Part shown: positions 1-30,652 of the stretch, piece by piece | Numbering within the stretch: the stretch's first letter is position 1 | Layout: the number at the start of each line of letters is the position of its first letter | Assembly (NCBI GenBank): GCA_024854585.1 | Contig: GCA_024854585.1_4323.1 | Length of the DNA: 45,809 nucleotides | Reading direction: 5' to 3' (one strand) | Origin: a phage | Position numbers and translations under genes: made by a program | The notes under the pieces: generated by a model | Database searches by the model: none | What the model was told of the DNA's origin: nothing | The model's input: the letters and a program-made list of their open reading frames with translations, nothing else

Positions 1-27
1 AAAAAAACCTCCCGAAGGAGGCTTTAT
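1..27. terminator. GC-rich hairpin plus T/A tract (aaaaacctcccgaaggaggcttt); intrinsic terminator after minus-strand gene 40..561
   Basis: Inverted repeat cctcc/ggagg flanked by A and T runs, read directly from sequence. Confidence 0.5.
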
Positions 28-39
28 ATATCTTAATTA

Positions 40-561
40 TTAAGCAGCGACAGCTGAGTCTGCTGATTGAATTAGCTGAACTTCAACCAGATTGCCGTCG
101 TAGCTCTCACCTTGCTTGATTGGGTTGCTTCCGGAAACGTAACCAGAAAGGAAGCCGCCAGCAAATGTAAAACCAGTTTCCCATGTAGTACCTGCTACTT
201 CGTCAGAAACAATGCCACTCGCGTTTACGTAAACCTTACTACCAAAAACTGGCGCAGCCGCTAGAGTTGTACGAACCCAGATTCGACCATGAGTCATTAC
301 GTTAACTGCTTCATTTACGCGAGCTGTGCCATCTGGAGTCTCGTAATGAGATTTAACAACAACACCATAAGGTTTAACTGCCGAGCCAGTTACGACTGGG
401 AGGCCAACAACCTTGTGACCATCTACAGGCTGAGCGGATGTAACGCCAACAAAAGTGCCAACCGGAATGGCTGCTGCGCCGCCAACCACACAAGCGCCGT
501 CGATGTTATACAGAGAGGTATCAGAAACCATACCAGCCAGTGCTACGGAACGAATTGCCAT
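40..561 (-). CDS. Putative head decoration / capsid accessory protein (lambda gpD position between scaffold and major capsid)
   Basis: 173-aa ORF, ATG with AAGGAG RBS; Gly/Val-rich; sits between protease-scaffold gene and (wrapped) major capsid gene. Confidence 0.45.
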   Translation of the reverse strand: MAIRSVALAGMVSDTSLYNIDGACVVGGAAAIPVGTFVGVTSAQPVDGHKVVGLPVVTGSAVKPYGVVVKSHYETPDGTARVNEAVNVMTHGRIWVRTTLAAAPVFGSKVYVNASGIVSDEVAGTTWETGFTFAGGFLSGYVSGSNPIKQGESYDGNLVEVQLIQSADSAVAA

Positions 562-573
562 GTTTATAACTCC

Positions 574-1659
574 TTATTTCTTAATTTTAGCTAAACGAGC
601 ACGCGGGTCTAATTTCTTAGGCTCATCGTCGCTGTCAGATTTGTCGGAAGCGGTAGTTGCTTTACGTACTTCAGCCATTTTATCAGATTCTTTGGCAATG
701 TCGAACGCCGCGTCGATGTATGCGTCAGACTTCTCGGAAACATCAAGCCCAGAGATTTCTTTAACATAAGCAACTTTAATACCTTTAGCATCCAGGCCAT
801 CAGCCTTCACACCAGCTTCAGCAGCAACAGCTACCAGAACAGCCAGAGCATCAGCATCAGCTTTCGCTTTAGCAACAGCAGCTTCGATTTCTGCTGGCAT
901 TGCATCTACTTTAGCTTTCAGCGAGTCGCGCTCTGCGATTGCAGTGTCAGCCTTTGCGTTCAGCGCTTCGATGTGAGAAGCGATTTCCGGGGCGACCTCA
1001 AATTCCTGTGCGCCGTCGAGTTTAATCTTAATCATTTCCTGTTTATCCTCTTTATTGATATCAACGTCAGTAGTATACGGGTTTTCCTGCTCACCGTCCA
1101 TATTCAATTTGGCAATACCTGCGCGACCGCGATATACCATTGCGAGATGATTCACTTTAATGTCACGCTGAATTGCGTCGAACTCCTGCCATCCTTCTGG
1201 TACGTCGAATAGCTCACTTTCAGACTTAAGGAAGTACTCACCAGTAACAGGGTCACCCCAACCTGGGGTGTAATCAATAACTGATGAGTATCCAACGGAT
1301 AACTCCTTTGCGTTACCTGCCATAGCTTCCTGAATGGCGGCATTATCGTAAATAACAATTGGAGCAACAACGGAGCTGCCTAATGGCTCTGCCTTTCCAG
1401 CAACTGAGCCAACTACTACCTCTTTAGCGTTCTCTGAGTTAACGAAAACATGATCAAGAGTCATTGGTTTACCCTGGTAGCTAGCTAGAGATTCATCCTT
1501 GAAAACCTCCTCGGCCGGGCGAAACTCCCGAACAGTGCGACCGTCCTCCATGTAATAGACTTGCACGCCGAGACGTGCGACTACTGGCGTATCGACTAAG
1601 AATCCATTCTCGTCGATTGTTGCCTTAAACTTTGCGCTGTCATAGCGGATTTTACTCAT
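574..1659 (-). CDS. Prohead protease / scaffold fusion-like head morphogenesis protein
   Basis: 361 aa; C-terminal Ala/Lys/Glu-rich coiled-coil segment typical of scaffolds; directly downstream of portal; AGGAGG RBS. Confidence 0.55.
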   Translation of the reverse strand: MSKIRYDSAKFKATIDENGFLVDTPVVARLGVQVYYMEDGRTVREFRPAEEVFKDESLASYQGKPMTLDHVFVNSENAKEVVVGSVAGKAEPLGSSVVAPIVIYDNAAIQEAMAGNAKELSVGYSSVIDYTPGWGDPVTGEYFLKSESELFDVPEGWQEFDAIQRDIKVNHLAMVYRGRAGIAKLNMDGEQENPYTTDVDINKEDKQEMIKIKLDGAQEFEVAPEIASHIEALNAKADTAIAERDSLKAKVDAMPAEIEAAVAKAKADADALAVLVAVAAEAGVKADGLDAKGIKVAYVKEISGLDVSEKSDAYIDAAFDIAKESDKMAEVRKATTASDKSDSDDEPKKLDPRARLAKIKK

Positions 1660-1672
1660 TAATTACAGCCTC

Positions 1673-2917
1673 CTATACTGGTTTTTGTTGTTGAGATTCA
1701 ATATCACCATCACCAATCTTAATCTCTGGTGCGATAGTACGTAGTGTATCACGGGCTTCGTTAGTATCCATAGCCCCAGCTGTAATTAGTGACGCGATGC
1801 TGTTTACGTTCTTCTCAAGAATCTCCGCCTTATCCTTGCTTGACTCCTGCGCCAGAGGGTTAAACTCAACCGACCATTCATCCACGTTAACAATGAACTT
1901 AATTAAGAACTCAAGAATAGGAAGCAATTCAGAGTTACGCTTGCGGTCAACTAGCTTATGGAATGTCTCAAGGGCTGTATTCTGGCTTGATGATACGCCA
2001 CCAACGTTCTTGTTCTTGAGGATAATTTCATGAATACCGCTCAGAGCAACGATTCTGTCAAACTTCTTATCCAGGAACGCGTCAATCCCACCAATATCAG
2101 AGTTCAGAACGCTGTATTCTTCAGACTCTGCATCAATGCCAATGGCCTGACCAACGCCGCTATTGTTGTCAACCTGTGCAAGTCGTAATCTAGCGGCACC
2201 AAATCCTTCGCTATCATCACATAACTCAGCCAGACCTTTCGCCTTCCACACTGCTTGCTGCTTGCGCTTCAGTAACTGCGTAGCCAGTCGTTCGCAGTTG
2301 GTGTAATCCTTAATTGAGTCAAGAATGTCACTTGATAGAACGCTGCGGCCCCAGCCATCATTCTGCCGACGCATTACGTTAGGAATTCGCTCTCCGTCAA
2401 TGATGTGAATGCGGCTGTAGTGCACATCGTAGAACATATCGCTTTCGTTTGTGGTGATACGATAGGTTAGCGGCTTACCAAATCGCGAGTTGCGTGGGTT
2501 CTCCTCGCGAGTTCGTACCTTTACCTGCGTACGGTCGTAAACGCGAACAGTTTCAAGCTCGGCACCTTCTCTGACCGGACTCGTTAATGCTCTATTGTCC
2601 TTAACGATAGCGACAATTGCAGCGCCGCCAAATAATCGCGCCCATGACCAAGCGTCGTTAATGTTCTGAGTCATTTCTAAATCATCCCAGCGCGACCAAA
2701 ATGCTGACTCATCATCAATACCATCAATGTGGAACCCTGCCGCTAGTGCTGTTTCCGGGATTGTGTCAATGATTCGACGCACCAGCGCATTATTCGCATA
2801 AATCGAAGCAAGAATTGTAGGGTCTTGATTCTGTAAACTCCCGTAAATCTCACTACCATCACTGCCGCCTAGAAAGATATTGGCGTAGCTGTCTGTCTTA
2901 ACCATGTTTTTCTCCAA
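1673..2917 (-). CDS. Portal protein (probable true start ATG at 2905)
   Basis: 414 aa, position between large terminase and protease/scaffold; GGAGA RBS before internal ATG. Confidence 0.6.
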   Translation of the reverse strand: MEKNMVKTDSYANIFLGGSDGSEIYGSLQNQDPTILASIYANNALVRRIIDTIPETALAAGFHIDGIDDESAFWSRWDDLEMTQNINDAWSWARLFGGAAIVAIVKDNRALTSPVREGAELETVRVYDRTQVKVRTREENPRNSRFGKPLTYRITTNESDMFYDVHYSRIHIIDGERIPNVMRRQNDGWGRSVLSSDILDSIKDYTNCERLATQLLKRKQQAVWKAKGLAELCDDSEGFGAARLRLAQVDNNSGVGQAIGIDAESEEYSVLNSDIGGIDAFLDKKFDRIVALSGIHEIILKNKNVGGVSSSQNTALETFHKLVDRKRNSELLPILEFLIKFIVNVDEWSVEFNPLAQESSKDKAEILEKNVNSIASLITAGAMDTNEARDTLRTIAPEIKIGDGDIESQQQKPV

Positions 2918-3407: not shown

Positions 3408-3428
3408 TTTAGCAATTCGTGCTATTTA
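3408..3428 (-). promoter_or_regulatory. Palindromic early-promoter/operator motif copy (TTTAGCAATTCGTGCTATTTA on + strand)
   Basis: Contains inverted repeat TAGCA-N5-TGCTA; overlaps TerL stop codon; TATAGT-like hexamer about 20 nt toward downstream gene. Confidence 0.6.
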
Positions 3429-4987
3429 ATTCCTGCTATGCGCATTAGTCTCGCCTTAGGATCATCCGCGATGTTAAGTACAAGGTTTGCCGCCATTGTT
3501 AGACAGTCAATTTGGTCGTCGTGCTTATGCGAGTCATCTGCCGTAAAAGCCGCAACCTCAGTGAGCAATCCGTTTAGCCACGGCGATGACTCTGGAAGAA
3601 CTACGTTACCAGCCTTAATCTGTGGTAGTGCACTCATCACCCTGGTTAGCTTGTCATTATCCGGTACGTATGACTCTATCGGTGTTCGCATAACCCTGCC
3701 AGCTGATTGAATCAGGCCGATACCAGACGCTTTCTTCTCGATAATAATCTTTCTTAGGATACCATCTGACTGACTGGTTGCCCTTGATTTCTTCTCGAAG
3801 TCCAGCAGTTCAGCCTCCAACTCTGGGGCCTCCCATTTACCCCTGCGCTGATCAATAAGGTAAATCTTAGCATCTTTATAGCCCCACAACTGAAGAACAG
3901 AGAAGTCGCTGTAACTTTTAGTGGTCATTGCGGTATCGCAAGTTATGAATCGATAGTCGTACTTAGCTGGAGGTCTGAACGTATCACTGATTCGCTGGAA
4001 CCAGTCCACGTTAATTAGGTTGCCACCCAGTGCTACTGGCTCCTGCTGATATTGACTAAGGAATGTGTACGGGTCGCTATCCCACATTGCCACCAGGTCG
4101 TTTACGGATTCCTTTTTAGGAAAGTAGCTGTAGTACTTTACGCCATCTCGCTCAATGTATTCGCTGCTTAGTACGTCCTCAGCAAACTGATCTTTAATCC
4201 AGTCAGGAAGTGAATCAATGTAATCCTCAGTAACTAATGCTGGTATCTTAATCAAATCGAATTCGATACCCATGCCGCCTTCCATCATGAAATAGGTTGA
4301 GTCATTGACGTGAAGCCGCTGCTGTATCGAAATGATTGGTGTCGCTTTGCCTTTTACAGAACTGGCTCGACGTGAGCGAATCGTATTTTTAAGCATTACG
4401 TGATTATTCGATCGGTACACTGCTGATAACATATCTGCGGGTTTGTCAAAGTCATCCAAAAGAACGGCTCCGCTGTATGTTTCGGTTATGTACCCACCGC
4501 GAGCGCCAGTAATCTGGCCTCCAGCCGCCTTTGATATTGACTCAAATCTAACCTTGCCACTCTCATCAAGAACCTGAAGCTCATCGTCTTTGCAAGTGCC
4601 AAACTTGCATGGCCAGAGTGACTGAAATTCTTGAGACTTGATAAGGTCGCGTACTCGCTTCGAGTTACGCTTAACCAGGGAGTCAGCAAAAGAGATGTTA
4701 AGGTTGCGCACCTTCCTAAGCTTAACCATCGAATAGGCCGGGAAGTGGATTGAGGCAATTTCCGTCTTTCCGCTGCCTGGTGCTATGTTAATGATGGTGT
4801 CCTTGCGCTCTCCTGCGATAATCTCGTCAATTATTCTGCACAAGTACTTGTGATGCCAGTTAGGGATGTATCGCTCGCCTTGCGTGATCTGGAACCAGCA
4901 ACGAAGAAAGCCCTCGAAGCTGTGTTCTGATATCGCCTTAACGGCCATCTTTTCCTGAATGGTCATTTCTTCCCATACTAAAGACAT
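3422..4987 (-). CDS. Terminase large subunit
   Basis: 521 aa; Walker A-like NIAPGSGKTE near N-terminus; precedes portal. Confidence 0.75.
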   Translation of the reverse strand: MSLVWEEMTIQEKMAVKAISEHSFEGFLRCWFQITQGERYIPNWHHKYLCRIIDEIIAGERKDTIINIAPGSGKTEIASIHFPAYSMVKLRKVRNLNISFADSLVKRNSKRVRDLIKSQEFQSLWPCKFGTCKDDELQVLDESGKVRFESISKAAGGQITGARGGYITETYSGAVLLDDFDKPADMLSAVYRSNNHVMLKNTIRSRRASSVKGKATPIISIQQRLHVNDSTYFMMEGGMGIEFDLIKIPALVTEDYIDSLPDWIKDQFAEDVLSSEYIERDGVKYYSYFPKKESVNDLVAMWDSDPYTFLSQYQQEPVALGGNLINVDWFQRISDTFRPPAKYDYRFITCDTAMTTKSYSDFSVLQLWGYKDAKIYLIDQRRGKWEAPELEAELLDFEKKSRATSQSDGILRKIIIEKKASGIGLIQSAGRVMRTPIESYVPDNDKLTRVMSALPQIKAGNVVLPESSPWLNGLLTEVAAFTADDSHKHDDQIDCLTMAANLVLNIADDPKARLMRIAGIK

Positions 4988-5004: not shown

Positions 5005-5511
5005 TTATAGCTTGCTAATAACAGACTCAAGCGCTTCCTTCATGCTATCAACGTCGTTAGCTGCAGAGTTATTGCTAATGGTAATTTCCTGCGGCTTATC
5101 AATTCCTAGCTCTTTACCCACGATGGTGGAGTTGATGATACCTGCAACGCCAAGCTGATATTTCTGCTCGTAAATTACGTTATCAATGAATTCCATCACG
5201 TCACAGTAGCCAGCCTCAGTGCGCCACCTAGCGAATCTGTTGATATTAACACCCATGAAGAGCGCCAACCCGGTTAATGTGAACACTCGAGGCTTGTGTA
5301 CCAGGTTCTCGCTAACCACGCCCTGGAATGCCGCCGTCTCAATAGCTTTGATTGCATCACTCTCAGCCCATGAGAAGTATCGAACAGCGAAATCGAAAAC
5401 CTCCTCAGGCGTGTACTTACGGTTGATTGCCACCATAGCAATATCGCCATACTTCTTGTTGTAAAGCGCCTTGAAATTTCCCTCACCCATCTTTAATGCT
5501 GCTTTGCTCAT
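5005..5511 (-). CDS. Putative terminase small subunit
   Basis: 168 aa ORF immediately upstream of large terminase in same orientation. Confidence 0.5.
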   Translation of the reverse strand: MSKAALKMGEGNFKALYNKKYGDIAMVAINRKYTPEEVFDFAVRYFSWAESDAIKAIETAAFQGVVSENLVHKPRVFTLTGLALFMGVNINRFARWRTEAGYCDVMEFIDNVIYEQKYQLGVAGIINSTIVGKELGIDKPQEITISNNSAANDVDSMKEALESVISKL

Positions 5512-5821: not shown

Positions 5822-5899
5822 TGGCACTCCGCACTGGCCTCGAACCAGTAACCTACGACTTAGAAGGTCGTTGCTGCTATCCAATTGAGCTAGCGGAGC
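5822..5899 (-). tRNA. tRNA-Arg (anticodon UCU), CCA encoded; D-arm region atypical
   Basis: Manual fold: 7-bp acceptor stem (one G-U), anticodon stem ACGAC/GTCGT with loop CTTCTAA (U33, anticodon TCT, A37), T-arm ACTGG-TTCGAGG-CCAGT; D-arm has only about 3 clean base pairs. Confidence 0.6.
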
Positions 5900-9879: not shown

Positions 9880-9900
9880 TTTAGCAATTCGTGCTATTTA
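9880..9900 (-). promoter_or_regulatory. Palindromic promoter/operator motif copy
   Basis: tttagcaattcgtgctattta; overlaps stop of 9894..10418. Confidence 0.6.
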
Positions 9901-10418
9901 CCATTCAGGATTGATTTAGCTTTCCGGTACAACTCAATCGCCTCCTCAACCTCTTCCTCACTGTACCGTAAGTGGTATGGTAGTCTACTAGCGTGCTCAC
10001 CTTCGTAAGTTTTGAAGTTTGGTTGCCAACACTCATCAATGATAGCCGGATGAACATAAATCTTATCTCCAATGAGGCAAGCTAGATTCATACTCTCTAG
10101 GGCTGGGATAAGCTCATCCTTAATGCTCGCCATGATATCAACGCAGCCCACGAACGGCTTAACCTTACGTGCAGCTTCGTGTACAGACTTGACACCCACC
10201 ACTCCCTTGACGTTCCTTGTCATCTTCCTAATCAACTTAATCAGAACCCCCAGCGCTTCATCTCTGTATACTTCCGATGCATCAGGCTGCCCCCAGAGGT
10301 GCTGAACATGCCTATACCCGTTAGCATTGATTGCAACCCGCAGTGGCGGCAGCCCATCCTGGATTGCAATATTCATAATCTGCTCGTCCGTCAGTTTCTC
10401 TTCGTTGAAATCAAACAT
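9894..10418 (-). CDS. Hypothetical protein; internally deleted paralog of 13243..14826 (shares its N- and C-terminal segments)
   Basis: MFDFNEEKLTDEQIMNIA...LPPLRVAINANGYR and ...GVVGVKSVHEAARKVKPF...CLIGDKIYV match N- and C-termini of the 527-aa protein. Confidence 0.6.
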   Translation of the reverse strand: MFDFNEEKLTDEQIMNIAIQDGLPPLRVAINANGYRHVQHLWGQPDASEVYRDEALGVLIKLIRKMTRNVKGVVGVKSVHEAARKVKPFVGCVDIMASIKDELIPALESMNLACLIGDKIYVHPAIIDECWQPNFKTYEGEHASRLPYHLRYSEEEVEEAIELYRKAKSILNGK

Positions 10419-10960
10419 TATTTAGCATCCTTAATCAAATCATAAAATCTACCGATAGCAATCTCTGCACCAACCTTCCGCTCACCATCCAAGTCCATAA
10501 CGCTCGGGACTACCTTCATTAATCTTGACTTGAATGATTCAATAACAGCAGCATCGCTATCTATCTTTCTCCTGGCGCTCTCGCTCTTCTTATGTTCACC
10601 ATCGCAGATCTGGATTACAAGATACTTATCTGCACCGTCACCGTCGAATTGCTTTGCACTCGTCTGCTCACCATCATCATCAATCCAGATTATCTTGTGC
10701 TTAGCGTGCTTTCCTGCAACCCTTAGTTGAGGCATCCTTGATACCGTATTGTAAATGTATGAGTTCTTCAATTCTGGAATCGACCGCTCCTTAAGGTTGA
10801 TGATCTCATCAGTTTCAACATCATACTTGAGCTCAGGATAATCCCGACCCCTAAGCACCTTGAATATTTCCCTTACAGGAACCTTAAACTCACCATCGCT
10901 GGACTCCATAGCTTTACTTACCATATTCCTGATTACTTCACCAAGCGTCACTTTATTCAT
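10418..10960 (-). CDS. Hypothetical early protein
   Basis: 180 aa; first gene after divergent region A; stop overlaps start of 9894..10418 (TAATG). Confidence 0.55.
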   Translation of the reverse strand: MNKVTLGEVIRNMVSKAMESSDGEFKVPVREIFKVLRGRDYPELKYDVETDEIINLKERSIPELKNSYIYNTVSRMPQLRVAGKHAKHKIIWIDDDGEQTSAKQFDGDGADKYLVIQICDGEHKKSESARRKIDSDAAVIESFKSRLMKVVPSVMDLDGERKVGAEIAIGRFYDLIKDAK

Positions 10961-11235
10961 ATATCACCTCGTTGTTGCATACTGCGTTTCATTGATTGGT
11001 ATATTGCATCAGATTTACGCGTTAGTCAAAGTATTTCTTTGTATATTTTTCACCTAATACGCAAATCTGCCTCTAGCGCCGCATCATCTCTATATGTATA
11101 TTGCGCGTACGCCGTGTATACACTTTTTTACCCACCAGGCCCCATGCATGCCTATCCATTCCTACAATGTCATCCCCTTCCTACAAGCGTCAGAATATCT
11201 GCGCGGAACATATCAATTATCCCATCAATTATCGG

Positions 11236-11305
11236 TATACACAGTATACATATATATAATAATAATAATAATAATAAAGTAAAAGGTTGATATATATAGG
11301 TATTA
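11236..11305 (+). repeat. Copy 1 of about 65-bp AT-rich repeat (tatacacagta...ataataataataataa agtaaaaggttgatatatatag)
   Basis: Near-identical block at about 29674-29736. Confidence 0.7.
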
Positions 11306-11587
11306 TATTGTATATCGCGTGTATATCTCGCGTAAAAACGTAGGTTAGTGGTCGCTAACTTTTGTGACGACACTGAGTATACTTAGGATACGCGTATATC
11401 TGTGAGGTGCTCATCGAGTGGTAAAATCAACTTGTATGGTAGTCCATCCATCTTTCATTCACCCACTCACCACTTCATTTCACTCTTCGCAACAATCAAA
11501 AACATCATTGCACCTGAAGCAATATTGCTGTACGTGCAATAATCATGTTAATCATTGCAATATCTGCAATAATCCATAAATCTGACG

Positions 11588-11607
11588 AATAGCACTTTTT
11601 GCTAAAG
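11588..11607 (+). promoter_or_regulatory. Motif copy in + gene orientation (aatagcactttttgctaaag)
   Basis: Followed by TATAGT-like hexamer and GAGGAGAGA RBS before ATG 11661. Confidence 0.5.
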
Positions 11608-11660
11608 ACATGTAGAACTGGTGAGGCTATAGTTAGCCCATCAACAACGAGGAGAGATAC

Positions 11661-11849
11661 ATGAAACTTAAAGGCGACGCGTTCGAGCAACTAAAGCAGG
11701 AATATTCCCTGATTGGATTGAACGATAATTATGCTGACATGGTTTTGCGCGGAAAGTTAGACATTGATTTGGCTAAGCAATTCCAGTCAGAAGATGAATT
11801 CATGTGCTGTGATGGACTTGGCTGCGTCGAATGCTTGCCATTTATTTGA
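11661..11849 (+). CDS. Hypothetical small protein (Cys-rich C-terminus)
   Basis: 62 aa; ...CCDGLGCVEC. Confidence 0.45.
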   Translation: MKLKGDAFEQLKQEYSLIGLNDNYADMVLRGKLDIDLAKQFQSEDEFMCCDGLGCVECLPFI

Positions 11850-13171: not shown

Positions 13172-13242
13172 GCACTAAAAGCTAAAGAATATCTGAGCGG
13201 GTGTTATATAATGCCCGCATATTAACGAGATGGAGTATTAAG

Positions 13243-14826
13243 ATGTTTGATTTCAACGAAGATAAACTATCTGTTGAACAGGTTATGGCAATTGCTGCCG
13301 CAGACAACCTCCCGCCACTGCGAGTCGCCATTAATGCCAATGGCTATCGCCAATCTCAATCATTCTGGAAAGCGCCAGTCGAGATTGATGCAGCTAATGA
13401 CAAATACCCCGTAATATCTCTCGGCAATGATATTGATGTTGTTGGTAAACTGTCAGCCAACATTGCTCGTTCAGTTCAGTTCCCCGAGTCTTCAGCTTAC
13501 ATGCACTTCCTGGGGTGTATTTCTGCCGCTATGCTAGGACGCTTTACTGTTGAGTATCACGGAACTCATCAGCCTACGTCTCTGTACGTAGTAACAAGCC
13601 AGCCTCCATCGACTGGTAAATCAGCTATTAACTCGCTATCTATTGCTCCAATGATTGCTGAGACTGAGCGGCTGAATGAAGTTCGAAAGCGTGAGCGTAA
13701 AAAGATTATGGCAAAACTATCTGCATTATCAAAAGAGATGAAGCAGGAAAAGTCACCATCAGAGATGGCTTCTCTTTTCGAGGAGAAAGAGGAGTTGGAG
13801 GAAAAACTCGAGAAACTATGCGATATCGTTTTCCCGGTTTCAGATACCACACCGGAAGGTCTTGCGCGAATAAACAATCGTCAGGGTAACTTTGCAGTAA
13901 TCTCGGATGAGGCAACGAGTGTAAACTCACTACTTGGCATGACCTATGGTGACGGATCAAAGAAAACGAACAGCGAACTGGTACTGAAGGCATGGGATGC
14001 TGGCAACGTATCTATCGCTCGTGCTAACGCTGAAAACAACATGAGCTTCGTCGCTATGGGTTGCATCTCTGTAATTGCGCAGGATGAGACAATCAACGCT
14101 ATCATGAACGCTGGCGCGCGTGGTATCGGTGTATCTGAGCGTTTCCTGCTTGTACGTGAAAAGTCATTCCTGGGCGAGCGTGTATTCGTTGATGAAAATG
14201 GCGAATCGACTTATGAACCAATTGATGGCGGGTTGAAGGCTGATTACTTCCGTTTAGTTCACGAGATAATGAATGAGCAAGAAGTTAAGTTGACAGTTAG
14301 TAATTCAGCAATGAAATATCTCAACCGCGCTCGTCAGGAAATGGAACCGCACCTTGCTGACGGCGGGAAGTATTCACACACAATGTTGCGAGGTGCGCTT
14401 GGTAAGTTCGATAAACAGGCAATAAGGATTGCGGCGGTACTTCATACTGTGCGCAACTGGTTCAACCCTAACGGCGGGAGTCCACATAAGTCTAGGGAGA
14501 TTGAACTTGATACTATGCAAGAGGCTGTAATCATGTTCCAGGAACTTAGCAAGACTTATCTGTCATCTGCAAACGCGGCTGGTCACGCTGGCGACAATGC
14601 CGAGATGAATAAGCTGATTGATATCCTGATCAAGCAAGGCAAAAGCGGGAAGGGCGTAGTTGGTATTCGTTCATTGTATGAAGCGGCTCGCAAGGTTAAG
14701 CCTTTCGAGGCTCAGGCGGGAGTAATGACGAAGATTAAAGATCACCTGCTGCCAATGCTTGATGAGAAAAACTATACTTGCCTGATTGGTGATAAAGTTT
14801 ACATTAATCCACGATTGCTGGGGTGA
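13243..14826 (+). CDS. Large hypothetical protein with P-loop-like motif (VVTSQPPSTGKSAI); possible NTPase of unknown role (track ORF starts 13201)
   Basis: 527 aa from ATG with GGAG RBS; GKS motif; termini shared with 9894..10418. Confidence 0.55.
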   Translation: MFDFNEDKLSVEQVMAIAAADNLPPLRVAINANGYRQSQSFWKAPVEIDAANDKYPVISLGNDIDVVGKLSANIARSVQFPESSAYMHFLGCISAAMLGRFTVEYHGTHQPTSLYVVTSQPPSTGKSAINSLSIAPMIAETERLNEVRKRERKKIMAKLSALSKEMKQEKSPSEMASLFEEKEELEEKLEKLCDIVFPVSDTTPEGLARINNRQGNFAVISDEATSVNSLLGMTYGDGSKKTNSELVLKAWDAGNVSIARANAENNMSFVAMGCISVIAQDETINAIMNAGARGIGVSERFLLVREKSFLGERVFVDENGESTYEPIDGGLKADYFRLVHEIMNEQEVKLTVSNSAMKYLNRARQEMEPHLADGGKYSHTMLRGALGKFDKQAIRIAAVLHTVRNWFNPNGGSPHKSREIELDTMQEAVIMFQELSKTYLSSANAAGHAGDNAEMNKLIDILIKQGKSGKGVVGIRSLYEAARKVKPFEAQAGVMTKIKDHLLPMLDEKNYTCLIGDKVYINPRLLG

Positions 14827-22346: not shown

Positions 22347-22829
22347 ATGAATGCAGTTGACAAGCGAACCACTAACGGTAATAACGGAACTATCCGCACT
22401 GAAGACAAAAAACAACGTAAACGACCTTCAGGCTACTACGTTTTAAAAGATGAAGTAAGAGCCGGGCTACGCGCGCGGCTTGAGATGCTCCTTGATTTCT
22501 TCGTCACAAAGGCGAATATTGCAAAGCAGTTAAAGGTAACTCCGCAGGCTGTAGAAGAATGGTTTAAGCGTGGTATGATTTCTGCGCGCGGTGCTCAACT
22601 GTCGCACAACTACTACAAACGAAACGGAGAGGGTTTTCGTGCTACATTCTGCCGACCAGACCTGCAATTTGACGGTAACGGCAAGCCACTGACACTCCGG
22701 TGCAAAAAGCGTCACATGCTACGCGTGGTTACTGAGGCTGAGTTAGCCACCAAGCCAGAGTGTCGATCATGGCGCAAGATTAAGGCCGCTAACGAGGCAG
22801 CACGAAAAGCTAAAGAGCAAGGGAAATAG
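22347..22829 (+). CDS. Putative HTH DNA-binding protein
   Basis: 160 aa; KANIAKQLKVTPQAVEEWFKRGMIS resembles Cro/YdaS-type HTH; basic termini. Confidence 0.45.
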   Translation: MNAVDKRTTNGNNGTIRTEDKKQRKRPSGYYVLKDEVRAGLRARLEMLLDFFVTKANIAKQLKVTPQAVEEWFKRGMISARGAQLSHNYYKRNGEGFRATFCRPDLQFDGNGKPLTLRCKKRHMLRVVTEAELATKPECRSWRKIKAANEAARKAKEQGK

Positions 22830-23821: not shown

Positions 23822-23843
23822 CCTCCTTCGGGAGGTTTTTTAT
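23821..23843. terminator. Terminator hairpin acctccttcgggaggtttttt
   Basis: GC stem plus T run after primase. Confidence 0.6.
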
Positions 23844-23866
23844 ACCTGAAAGATGCTACAATCAAA

Positions 23867-23888
23867 CTTAGCAATTCGTGCTATTTTA
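23867..23888 (-). promoter_or_regulatory. Motif copy in minus-gene orientation with no minus-strand gene to drive (module-boundary remnant?)
   Basis: cttagcaattcgtgctatttta sits 20 nt upstream of tailspike ATG. Confidence 0.4.
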
Positions 23889-27023: not shown

Positions 27024-27440
27024 TTAAAATGGAATATCCGAATCAAACTGCTGTTGTGGTTGTGGTTGTCTCTGCTGCTGATGTTGCTGTTGTTGTCTTT
27101 GCTGCTGCTGTTGTACACCATCACCACGCTGACTAAACTCAAGTCGAGGGTTATTCATGTTAATCGTTACGTAAGTCTTACCATCTTTATCACGAACATC
27201 AACAGCCAGGCTTTCAGCGCTAACGCTAACAACTTTACCCTCTTTAAATGCATCGTTGTACCAATCTAACATTGACTCTTTCGCGAAGAAGACTGCGCGG
27301 TAGTTACTATACTGAGTTTGCCCATCTTTATCCTTGTATCGCTCACTTAAGTCAACTGCAAACATTTTCCAGCTACCATTAGCATTCTGACCTTCCTTAG
27401 TGAATGGAGCGCGGCGAATCTGACCAGTAATTACGTGCAT
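27024..27440 (-). CDS. ssb: Single-stranded DNA-binding protein
   Basis: 138 aa; OB-fold-like N-terminal region, Gln-rich linker, C-terminal acidic tail ending DSDIPF. Confidence 0.75.
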   Translation of the reverse strand: MHVITGQIRRAPFTKEGQNANGSWKMFAVDLSERYKDKDGQTQYSNYRAVFFAKESMLDWYNDAFKEGKVVSVSAESLAVDVRDKDGKTYVTINMNNPRLEFSQRGDGVQQQQQRQQQQHQQQRQPQPQQQFDSDIPF

Positions 27441-29171: not shown

Positions 29172-29366
29172 CTATTCCTTAACCTTAACTACTTTAACAG
29201 ATTTCATATCTTCCTCAGTAAAGTACCCGGTCAGCACATCCCGGGCTTCTTCTTTAGTCTCGAATCTGTCTGCTTCGCTCTTATCTGTTGTGTACCCAGC
29301 TGGGCCGCCAAAGTAGCAGTCTCCGAACAGTGCATTGTTTTTCTCTTTGATAATGTAGTAGGTCAT
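29172..29366 (-). CDS. Hypothetical small protein
   Basis: 64 aa ORF directly upstream of exonuclease. Confidence 0.45.
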   Translation of the reverse strand: MTYYIIKEKNNALFGDCYFGGPAGYTTDKSEADRFETKEEARDVLTGYFTEEDMKSVKVVKVKE

Positions 29367-29673
29367 TTCTGCATCTCTCTATGGTTGATTGCTTTCGATT
29401 AGTTAACTATATAGTCAGCGCCATAGCCAGTCCAATTGGTTTTGCCAATCGTTGATTTAAGTTTACGTGTGAATGCTTGTAATTCCGTGTAGGCATTGCC
29501 ACTTGTTACGTAAAATGGCATCTCAGCCCAGATATAGCTCAATGTAACCATCGTGTATATCGTGTATACCGTTTCTTGCAGAGGGGTGAATTGGTATAGC
29601 TGCCACGCAATACTGTATAAATCCACATGATATTAAAATTATAACCGGAACACTCTATGGAAGTAGTTACATG

Positions 29674-29736
29674 ATATACACAGTAATATATATAATAATA
29701 ATAATAAGAGTAAAAGGTTGATATATATAGATATTT
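29674..29736 (+). repeat. Copy 2 of about 65-bp AT-rich repeat
   Basis: atatacacagtaatatatataataataataataagagtaaaaggttgatatatatag. Confidence 0.7.
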
Positions 29737-29854
29737 TAATGTAACTAATGCGTAAATTGGCGTAACAGCGCGTATATCATTTTTCGCGGATGAGATTGCA
29801 TACATCGAGTTACATCGGTTACGTGTAACTGTGATTTGTGGTGAATTTGGAGAT

Positions 29855-29875
29855 AAATAGCACGATTTGCTAAAG
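29855..29875 (+). promoter_or_regulatory. Motif copy in + orientation (aaatagcacgatttgctaaag)
   Basis: Upstream of 29981..30652. Confidence 0.5.
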
Positions 29876-29980
29876 ACAACTAGCTATCTTTGGGTATATT
29901 TAGGCGCATGGCGGCAATGGTGCTGCTTGGTCTACCGAAAATCGGCAGACCAAAACCAAACGATGGCTAAAATCTGAGAC

Positions 29981-30652
29981 ATGAAAAACATAAGAGAGAC
30001 TAAAATGAACATTGAAGCGTACAAAGAACAGCCAAAAACCATGATGAGCACGAAGGAAATTGCTGAATTGACAGGTAAGCGTCATGATCACGTCGTTCGC
30101 GACACAAAGGAAATGATCAATGAATTGTTACATTATAACTATGCCCCAGATTTGGGTCATGATGATTATCAAGTACTTACGGACAATCGCGGCTATACAT
30201 CTGAGGTTTTACTCAACAAGGAACTCACCGAAACGCTAATCACTGGCTACAGTGTCGTACTTCGCCACAAAGTAATCCGCAGGCTTCATGAGCTTGAGGT
30301 GTTAGTTAAAAAACAAGCAGAAGTGATCAGCCAGATGGTAAGCATTGATGAGTTAAAAGAGGCGCGCATGATGCTTGGTGTGGCTAATGCTCAGAATGCA
30401 CACCTGAGCCAGCGCATTGTTGCAGAGCAAAGAATAAATGAGATTTTACTCATGGATAAGAATACCGATGAAAAACTCGACATGTTGGCTTGTGAGGCTC
30501 GCCAGTGTTGGGTTAGTCGTTCTGATGAGATGGAGGAAAGATTTAAGTATGAATCGCAATGCTTCGCGCTTAAAGAAAAGACGGATGCACTTACCGGATT
30601 AATTGAGAATGAGCTAGGTATTGACATTAAGCTGTTGCTCGAAAAGAAATAG
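29981..30652 (+). CDS. Rha-like phage regulatory protein (possible true start at 30005)
   Basis: N-terminal STKEIAELTGKRHDHVVRD pattern typical of Rha-family regulators; coiled-coil C-terminus. Confidence 0.45.
   Translation: MKNIRETKMNIEAYKEQPKTMMSTKEIAELTGKRHDHVVRDTKEMINELLHYNYAPDLGHDDYQVLTDNRGYTSEVLLNKELTETLITGYSVVLRHKVIRRLHELEVLVKKQAEVISQMVSIDELKEARMMLGVANAQNAHLSQRIVAEQRINEILLMDKNTDEKLDMLACEARQCWVSRSDEMEERFKYESQCFALKEKTDALTGLIENELGIDIKLLLEKK

Follow-up and report, generated by a model that had tools for sequence, protein, structure and literature searches.

A putative composite control region in a T1-like coliphage: the packaging start and one of two copies of an AT-rich, origin-type module

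Genomic context and conservation of region A

Region A is a 700-bp gap (positions 10961–11660) in a phage DNA stretch of 45,809 nucleotides (contig GCA_024854585.1_4323.1), which was analyzed at its full length and is referred to here as the window. As an earlier sequence-only reading had proposed, the gap divides leftward from rightward genes. It lies between a DUF7174 gene (10418–10960, minus strand; Pfam E value, 1e-43, and relatives' annotations), which is the first leftward gene and a homologue of T1 ST77 and Rtp gene 1, and a 62-amino-acid (aa) gene (11661–11849, plus strand). Small early genes, a tRNA, the small and large terminase subunits, the portal, and head genes follow leftward from 10960, and small genes, an HNH endonuclease, and a DUF3987 helicase follow rightward from 11661. 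BLAST matches of the region were T1-like coliphages of the Drexlerviridae, mostly Braunvirinae, the closest being BEK6 (95%) and SU57 (93%), and the gene order of the window agreed with the T1 feature table. Judged by these comparisons, the source genome is a T1-like coliphage of the Drexlerviridae, Braunvirinae. T1 belongs to the original set of seven T phages, and the contamination of laboratories and fermenters by T1-like phages is notorious, while the replication origin and the packaging start (pac) signal sequence of T1 have hitherto been undefined. On balance, we lean toward the view that region A is a composite cis-acting control region, which combines pac, two promoters, and an origin-type AT-rich module.

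Eleven open reading frames (ORFs) of at least 20 aa overlap region A, and each of those inside the gap is interrupted by stops or frameshifts in several of 12 aligned relatives (the alignments included BEK6, 2725-N35, TR1, Sd1, T145P1, JeanPiccard, BEK1-1, 12210I, MSK, IME253, and AHS24). Because every internal ORF of this size is broken in some relatives, region A is considered non-coding, which agrees with its earlier description as ORF-free; no conserved gene was found among the ORFs predicted inside it. Small ORFs are annotated over the gap in some records, in differing frames in different phages. Rfam searches at gathering and permissive thresholds returned only a tRNA elsewhere and two chance-level matches, with none for region A. 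All of the elements that had been listed from the sequence alone were found where they had been placed.

The alignments revealed two conserved islands within an otherwise fast-evolving gap. The identities to the window in the closer relatives (typical values, with TR1 and the near-identical BEK6 left out) were 57–71% for 10961–11231, 91–98% for the AT-rich block at 11232–11330, 85–94% for 11422–11488, and 88–96% for 11489–11610, which contains the box cluster described below. The corresponding values in the more distant MSK, IME253, and AHS24 were 34–55%, 67–70%, 54–88%, and 84–93%. TR1 was lower in the three conserved segments, at 81% in the AT-rich block, 76% in 11422–11488, and 88% in 11489–11610. 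Since the homologues of the DUF7174 protein in most of the closer relatives share just about 59% identity with it, the islands of region A are more constrained than the adjacent gene. A locus search with the DUF7174 protein gave no confirmed loci, and exact-pattern scans of IMG/VR added few further examples of region A.

Packaging start

Packaging termini determined from the sequencing reads of three relatives could be placed on the window by alignment. The SU57 authors reported several candidate ends and began their record at one given by PhageTerm, where the read depth also changed abruptly (PMC7718038); position 1 of that record corresponds to window position 11422. The headful packaging site of TR1 was located by PhageTerm at 3,615 and is annotated in the record (PMC10450929); it corresponds to 11447 (alignment A1). 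For MSK, the PhageTerm start is 36,862, directed forward along the MSK record (PMC8421802); it corresponds to approximately 11439 and is leftward in the orientation of the window. The zone of the first cut for leftward packaging is set here at 11422–11465 (minus strand), inside the conserved block AAAATCAACTTGTATGGTAGTCCATCCATCTTTCATTCAC, and all three terminus positions, no more than 26 bp apart, fall in it. They are 100–200 bp to the right of the AT-rich repeat, outside it and beside boxes of the TGCAATAATC type.

Records of other phages were opened in the same place, which is the customary genome end of the family. The T1 record, with a terminal repeat annotated at 1..2800, was opened in the homologous 700-bp gap, and its position 1 lies inside the second copy of the direct repeat GCAACAATCACATC. 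The TLS record was opened in the homologous 783-bp gap, and several other records begin at equivalents of window 11403–11569. Region A is syntenic with the opening gap of T1 and TLS, which lies between the DUF7174/ST77-like gene and the ST1-like genes. In TLS, restriction mapping gave the location of pac, and a resemblance to the AGATTT motif of P22 pac was then used to place it (PMC11447400). Because the read termini of relatives and the record openings of T1 and TLS map to region A, the location of pac in this region, taken from relatives' data, is well supported, and of the roles suggested earlier for the region, that of a packaging site is borne out. We conclude from the same data that the first packaging cut occurs at approximately 11422–11447, possibly spread to approximately 11570, and that packaging proceeds leftward. 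A pac-containing control region that was known in outline is thus newly placed to within tens of bases.

Some caution about the exact position is warranted. The mapped termini belong to relatives and not to the window phage, and the starts of the T1 record and some other records are 50–120 bp to the right of the PhageTerm positions of the Braunvirinae. In a 2025 paper on a T1-like phage outbreak, PhageTerm was unable to assign a terminus type. Region A shares with the pac regions of T1, TLS, Rtp, and other Drexlerviridae the syntenic gap of about 700 bp, the direction of packaging, and a small terminase of the P22 gp3 family, but the recognition sequence of the family has never been defined.

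A cluster of repeated boxes lies beside the cut zone (11489–11575, plus strand). It consists of GCAACAATC at 11489, ATCATTGCA at 11504 and 11551, GCAATATTGC at 11519, and TGCAATAATC at 11535 and 11565, the last two copies being 30 bp apart. The motif GCAAYAATC has three genomic matches, all of which are in region A at 11489–11574. The GCAACAATC and ATCATTGCA boxes are common to the window and T1, and the start of the T1 record is inside one of them. The small terminase gene (5005–5511) encodes a member of the P22 gp3 family (Pfam GP3_package; E value, 3e-12; PHROG 606). Among candidate recognition sites of the terminase, the cluster ranks first, and the small terminase would bind there. The density of AATCA was also considered as a common pac signature and was dropped as not distinctive.

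Twin AT-rich module

The AT-rich block of region A occurs twice in the window. Positions 11236–11312 match 29675–29743 with 87% identity over 71 columns (E value, 2e-16 within the window), as the near-exact recurrence noticed earlier had indicated, and no third copy was found in the window. The non-repetitive flanks ATACACAGTA and GTAAAAGGTTGATATATATAG are confined to these two genomic sites. Copy A of the module (11232–11336) was delimited by this repeat, low duplex stability, conservation, and boxes. From left to right, it comprises a left box GTGTATACC (11234–11242, minus strand), a (TA)n and (ATA)7.3 stretch (11247–11277, of which 11256–11277 was reported as (ATA)7.3 by Tandem Repeats Finder, TRF), a match to the IHF core TATCAACCTTTTA (11280–11292, minus strand), a further element TATATATAG, the right boxes TTGTATATC at 11308 and GTGTATATC at 11319, and GCGTAAA at 11330.

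Copy B is 18.4 kb from copy A and upstream of the recE/erf/ssb operon, in a second divergent non-coding region (region B, 29522–29980) that is bounded by a small ORF of this operon on one side and a Rha-like gene on the other. Region B contains tandem boxes CGTGTATATCGTGTATACC (29552–29570), the left box GTGTATATC (29673–29681, minus strand), (ATA)5.3 (29692–29707, TRF), an IHF-core match (29711–29723, minus strand), GCGTAA twice together with GCGTATATC at 10-bp steps (29750–29778), and GTTAC/GTAAC repeats (29801–29829). Copy B is near-invariant in seven phages, including a Nouzillyvirus, and its ATA run is invariant in six of the seven.

In a nearest-neighbor analysis of duplex stability, no other 60-bp window of the genome was as unstable as copies A and B (z 5.3 and 5.1, against 3.1 for the next window). 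The twin blocks of T1 (z 5.8 and 5.5; next, 3.8) and TLS (5.1 and 5.1; next, 3.4) are likewise the least stable 60-bp windows of their genomes. The pair kept this rank for 40-, 60-, and 100-bp windows in the genome studied here and for 60- and 100-bp windows in T1 and TLS. In both T1 and TLS, one unstable site is 200–300 bp inside the record start and the other is upstream of recE, so that the repeat blocks, when sought in syntenic phages, were found in the same twin arrangement. The local alignment score between T1 copies A and B was 77 (locally shuffled controls, 33 ± 6), and that between T1 copy A and window copy B was 67 (shuffled controls, 26 ± 3). This likeness of the T1 blocks to each other and to window copy B indicates that the module pair is older than the split of the subfamilies. 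We found no description of the module in the accessible literature; the 2024 re-annotation of TLS found no iterons or origin and listed basic regulatory questions as open (PMC11447400).

The ATA run had been labeled a microsatellite, a term that does not suit it. The length of (ATA)n is identical in the nine phages of alignment A1, and a 111-bp query spanning it aligned without gaps in 53 records. As no aligned relative differs in the length of the (ATA)7 run, the block is not a variable microsatellite, and the run is constrained. Both blocks carry TATCAACCTTTTA, which fits the IHF core consensus WATCAANNNNTTR exactly, and they account for two of the three genomic matches; in relatives, the match is exact in MSK and has one mismatch in IME253 and AHS24. 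Since the match is absent from the T1 and TLS blocks, IHF is only a lead.

Two further observations concern the module sites. Region A of MSK has extra sequence (CCAGATATAGCTCAATGTAACC...) that belongs to region B in the window, which points to past exchange between the two modules by recombination or gene conversion. Additionally, the small ORF to the left of region B (29172–29521, minus strand) is one gene of 115–143 aa in TR1, JulesPiccard, CEB_EC3a, and BEK3; a frameshift near 29370–29393 divides it into ORFs of 40 and 64 aa in the window, and DTL retains the C-terminal part only.

Boxes flanking the modules

Short boxes surround both copies of the module. The motif G[CT]GTATA[CT] has 10 genomic matches, nine of which are in the two intergenic regions (p 4e-14); CGCGTGTATATC (11316) and CGCGTATATC (11391) are members of it, and CGCGTATATC recurs at 29769. 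In an unbiased 7-mer scan, GTGTATA was the top k-mer outside the AT run (7/11 matches; p 2e-9). All five exact genomic matches of GTGTATAYC are in the two regions. The box is inverted at the left edge of each block (11234 and 29673), with direct copies to the right of copy A (11319, and variants at 11308 and 11392), a variant to the right of copy B (29770), and a tandem pair at 29553 and 29562 with a 9-bp period (TRF span 29550–29572). A palindromic box GTGTATACAC at 11114–11123 carries GTGTATAY on both strands, and relatives have the palindrome TGTGTACA instead. Another palindrome, ATACGCGTAT (11388–11397), overlaps the box variant GCGTATATC, the two together lying at 11388–11400 (plus strand). 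Boxes of the GCGTAA type follow the blocks at 10–11-bp steps in the window, MSK, IME253, AHS24, and T1.

The boxes pointed out earlier, namely the TGCAATAATC pair, the CGCGT(G)TATATC type, and the palindrome ATACGCGTAT, were all found and are strongly enriched. The description "iteron-like" therefore holds as far as the boxes are real and enriched, but they form two unrelated sets, the GTGTATAYC type and the GCAAYAATC type, whose likely roles differ.

Different words occupy the equivalent places in other lineages. The T1 boxes (TGTTAMWC), represented by TGTTAATC and TGTTACAC, have 9 of 14 matches in the two regions of T1, and one set forms three tandem copies with a period of 9 bp. All six genomic matches of TGTAACA, the reverse complement of TGTTACA, are in the two T1 regions, and this word was the top T1 k-mer not purely A/T in the unbiased scan. 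The TLS box TGTTCAC(G) has half of its eight matches in the two TLS regions, including a directly repeated pair. Each phage's box was thus enriched in its own two regions (6/8 in the window, 9/14 in T1, and 4/8 in TLS) and gave zero or one match in the regions of the other phages. Tandem copies recur every 8–9 bp. Because the boxes are site-specific and change with the lineage at both sites together, these patterns indicate that the protein binding them is probably phage-encoded and not a host factor.

The DUF3987 helicase (13201–14826, plus strand; Pfam) is a candidate for this protein. Its C-terminus has a predicted winged helix resembling those of Orc/Cdc6 initiators. A 174-aa partial paralogue (9894–10418, minus strand) contains the N-terminus and the winged helix without the ATPase core; it matches helicase residues 15–60 and 472–540 by BLASTP (E value, 1e-21), and the two genes share three inverted repeats. 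The helicase gene and the inverted paralogue gene flank region A, and homologues of the paralogue of 173–182 aa are widespread in T1-like phages. Sequence searches of the PDB with both proteins gave no significant match, and the single-sequence structure prediction of the paralogue was unusable (pLDDT 35). The helicase is a reasonable candidate box-binder and is put forward as nothing more.

Promoters and the 21-nt repeat

A repeat of 21 nt has been described for TLS, T1, and Rtp approximately 76 nt upstream of start codons, its role being left open by the authors (PMC11447400). The window contains about 14 copies (AATAGCACnnnTTGCTAAA; core palindrome, TAGCA-N5-TGCTA), which were located at 3408, 7434, 8098, 9880, 19530, 19821, 23867, 28186, and 37220 on the minus strand and at 11588, 12243, 22824, 29856, and 30648 on the plus strand, the promoter copy of region B spanning 29856–29878. 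The copies sit at about −51 to −33 of promoters whose −35 (AAGACA) is weak and whose −10 (TATAGT) is good. In region A, the sequence AATAGCACTTTTTGCTAAAGA at 11588–11608 fits the consensus aaATAGCACnnnTTGnTAAAA and is 73 nt upstream of the ATG at 11661, and it is an ordinary member of the T1-family repeat, from which it shows no difference. It belongs to a predicted promoter at 11588–11633 (plus strand; AATAGCACTTTTTGCTAAAGACA, 17 bp, TATAGT), which was recognized from repeat families and a promoter scan; TATAGT follows AAGACA after 17 bp, and the element is intergenic and co-directional with the rightward gene.

The exact 18-mer of the repeat was found in more than 120 IMG/VR stretches, including contigs that are not of T1 size (42, 148, and 166 kb). 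The copy at 23857–23886 is leftward between the rightward primase and tail fiber genes and faces a bidirectional terminator (23822–23841); it may be an antisense or short-RNA promoter, or else the 21-nt repeat may not always be a promoter element.

A candidate sigma-70 promoter for the leftward operon was inferred at 11001–11029 (minus strand), with a −35 TTGACT (11029–11024), a 17-bp spacer, and a −10 CAATAT (11006–11001). It is 35–70 bp upstream of the DUF7174 gene and below the threshold of the consensus scan, and its −35 is conserved as TTGACC in relatives. With the elements at 11001–11029 and 11588–11633, both operons flanking region A have plausible promoters of their own far from the AT-rich block. 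The earlier suggestion of transcription control is supported to the extent of these two promoters, which were identified by sequence only. Meanwhile, the GCGTAA boxes were tried as a leftward −35 (TTTACG-18-TACAAT); this fits the window phage, but the spacing fails in MSK and T1, and the idea was rejected. A literature search found no transcriptome of a T1-like phage.

The module pair as a candidate bipartite origin

We propose with moderate confidence, from the anatomy of the sequence, that the pair of AT-rich modules may be a bipartite replication origin in which iterons are combined with an unwinding element. Read from right to left, region A would begin with the T1-type 21-nt-repeat promoter for the rightward early operon. 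The small terminase would then assemble on the GCAAYAATC and ATCATTGCA boxes and make its first cut 45–70 bp leftward, and packaging would proceed leftward from approximately 11422–11447. Next would come one of the two copies of the ancient AT-rich module, and finally the sigma-70-like promoter for the leftward operon. The core of the module would be an easily melting stretch of 70–100 bp, accompanied in this clade by the IHF-consensus site and the fixed-length (ATA)n spacer. A phage protein, most likely the DUF3987 helicase or its truncated paralogue acting through the winged helix, would bind the tandem and inverted 8–9-bp GTGTATAYC boxes and open the DNA, and the two sites would operate as ori and crr do in P4 or oriL and oriR in SPP1.

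The comparison with P4 rests on two distant cis sites that share 8-bp boxes in tandem (9–11-bp steps) and inverted orientation. The type 1 repeats TGTTCACC of P4 are present in ori and crr and are bound by the alpha protein, and the TLS box TGTTCACG agrees with TGTTCACC at seven of eight positions. The primase of the window phage also shares the Zn-ribbon domain (Zn_Ribbon_Prim) of alpha, and a predicted C-terminal winged helix is present in the helicase. However, primase and helicase are separate proteins here, and the helicase has the DUF3987 domain in place of the D5_N/DUF5906/Pox_D5 domains of P4 and no BLASTP similarity to alpha; by these features, the system is not of the P4 type. The extreme AT-rich block that is central to the sites here is absent from P4 ori and crr. 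SPP1 is a virulent pac-type siphophage of Bacillus with two distant origins, oriL and oriR, in which initiator boxes lie beside an AT-rich segment, as reportedly described by Missich et al. in 1997. It differs in that its initiator, G38P, is unrelated and one of its origins is inside the initiator gene.

Several findings weigh against an origin. AT-rich blocks with repeated boxes between divergent operons also suit promoter-plus-operator regions. In P4, the duplex is not at its least stable in ori and crr. DnaA boxes (TTWTNCACA) are absent from both regions, so that neither resembles an oriC-type origin in this respect. The T1 and TLS blocks lack the IHF match, the box motifs of T1 and TLS were initially picked by eye, and the unbiased k-mer support for the TLS box is modest (p 2e-5). 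There are no GATC sites in either region, and GC skew, a check suggested earlier, follows the coding strand and is uninformative on the origin.

The modules could instead be regulated early-promoter hubs, with back-to-back sigma-70 promoters, UP-like AT tracts, and an IHF bend, for which the GTGTATAYC and GCGTAA boxes would be operators of a Cro-like regulator (22347–22829) or the Rha-like protein (29981–30652). Both modules are between divergent early operons, the tandem boxes at 29552–29570 are 30–50 bp upstream of a leftward ORF, the T1 boxes overlap the stretch just upstream of ST77, and two divergent promoters predicted in silico are annotated on copy B in the CEB_EC3a record. Consensus scans also find several hexamer pairs in the block, for example, TTTACT-16-TATTAT leftward, but these are weak matches, none of which is conserved as a pair across subfamilies, and chance predicts such matches in pure AT sequence (8 vs. 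4.4 ± 2.1 in shuffles). As a rightward −10, the candidate GTAACT or GTATAT is poor and lacks conservation in that role, and the T1 and TLS blocks retain AT-richness and instability but not the hexamers. Moreover, the operons of region A already have gene-adjacent promoters 230–300 bp from the block, and the base-by-base invariance of a 100-bp block and its (ATA)7 run is unusual for promoters. We consider promoter hubs the main rival explanation, though a rather doubtful one; were they correct, the immediate-early control regions of the family would be defined all the same. A part in packaging is less probable still and, in our view, unlikely. Copy A would then be a cosB-like, IHF-bent site of terminase assembly, and copy B a secondary pac or a relic. 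In lambda, a cos phage that does not package by headful from a pac, the IHF site I1 of cosB lies between the R sites of gpNu1, and IHF acts between these terminase-binding sites. The likeness lies in what immediately follows the first packaged end on its inner side, namely, short repeated boxes and an IHF-consensus site: copy A carries the exact IHF core consensus and is 100–200 bp inside the packaged end in SU57 and 200–300 bp in the T1 and TLS records, and the several candidate ends of SU57 would also fit. However, the module has a second copy far from the known DNA ends, where neither the GCAAYAATC cluster, the cut-zone block, nor any reported terminus is found, and the IHF match is confined to the clade, being missing from T1 and TLS. 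Because copy B is conserved as strongly as copy A, across subfamilies and always upstream of recE, it is hardly a relic, and a cosB-like role for copy A alone is inadequate since it leaves the equally conserved copy B unexplained.

Conservation of region A might also be due to the products of hidden small protein genes or a non-coding RNA. Several records annotate minus-strand ORFs of 38–49 aa over 11456–11580, and one minus-strand frame (11505–11610) is stop-free in all relatives. The annotated ORFs are nevertheless in differing frames, that of BEK6 stopping after nine codons in the window, and a conserved start codon would give the open frame no more than a tail of 13–16 aa. Together with the breakage of every ORF of at least 20 aa in some relatives and Rfam scores not above chance, this makes hidden genes very improbable. 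Finally, the repeat is simple sequence, (TA)n and then (ATA)n, and might be regarded as functionless low-complexity or slippage-prone DNA that recurs by chance. This is contradicted by the conservation data and is scarcely credible: the E value of the pair is 2e-16, the flanks ATACACAGTA and GTAAAAGGTTGATATATATAG occur only at the two sites, the length is invariant, the block is 91–98% identical against 57–71% in its flanks, and the same twin arrangement is found in T1 and TLS.

A more far-reaching version of the bipartite origin is offered tentatively and is, on present evidence, rather less than probable. The Drexlerviridae may generally use an origin of two parts, one beside pac and one upstream of recE, at which the winged helix of the helicase would read lineage-specific iterons of 8–9 bp and the truncated paralogue would compete as a regulator. 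An origin 100–200 bp from the pac cut would couple the initiation of replication with that of packaging. The targets are now specific: for pac, a cut zone of 26 bp with its neighboring box cluster; for the origin, the two modules, each about 100 bp long, with their boxes; and a named candidate binder. With these, the origin and pac signal of a classic phage become directly testable. Once defined, the elements could be of use for constructing transducing or cosmid-like vectors from T1 and for designing ways to combat contamination with CRISPR or decoys.

Other features of the window

Two minor elements of region A lie outside the sets described above. A direct repeat, TTCCTACAA, occurs twice at 11160–11200; its equivalent in relatives is the palindrome CTGACA-AG-TGTCAG, and it is moderately conserved. 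The palindrome GTTAGTGGTCGCTAAC followed by TTTT (11344–11363, plus strand) is conserved in closer relatives only and may be either a weak hairpin or terminator-like element or a dimer-binding site. Elsewhere in the window, a tRNA gene (5825–5899, minus strand; Rfam, 50.6 bits) was identified among the small early genes upstream of the terminase, as is typical of T1-like phages. A tandem repeat of 27 bp (2.4 copies, 27048–27113) is inside the span of a 138-aa ORF (27024–27440) beside the erf gene.

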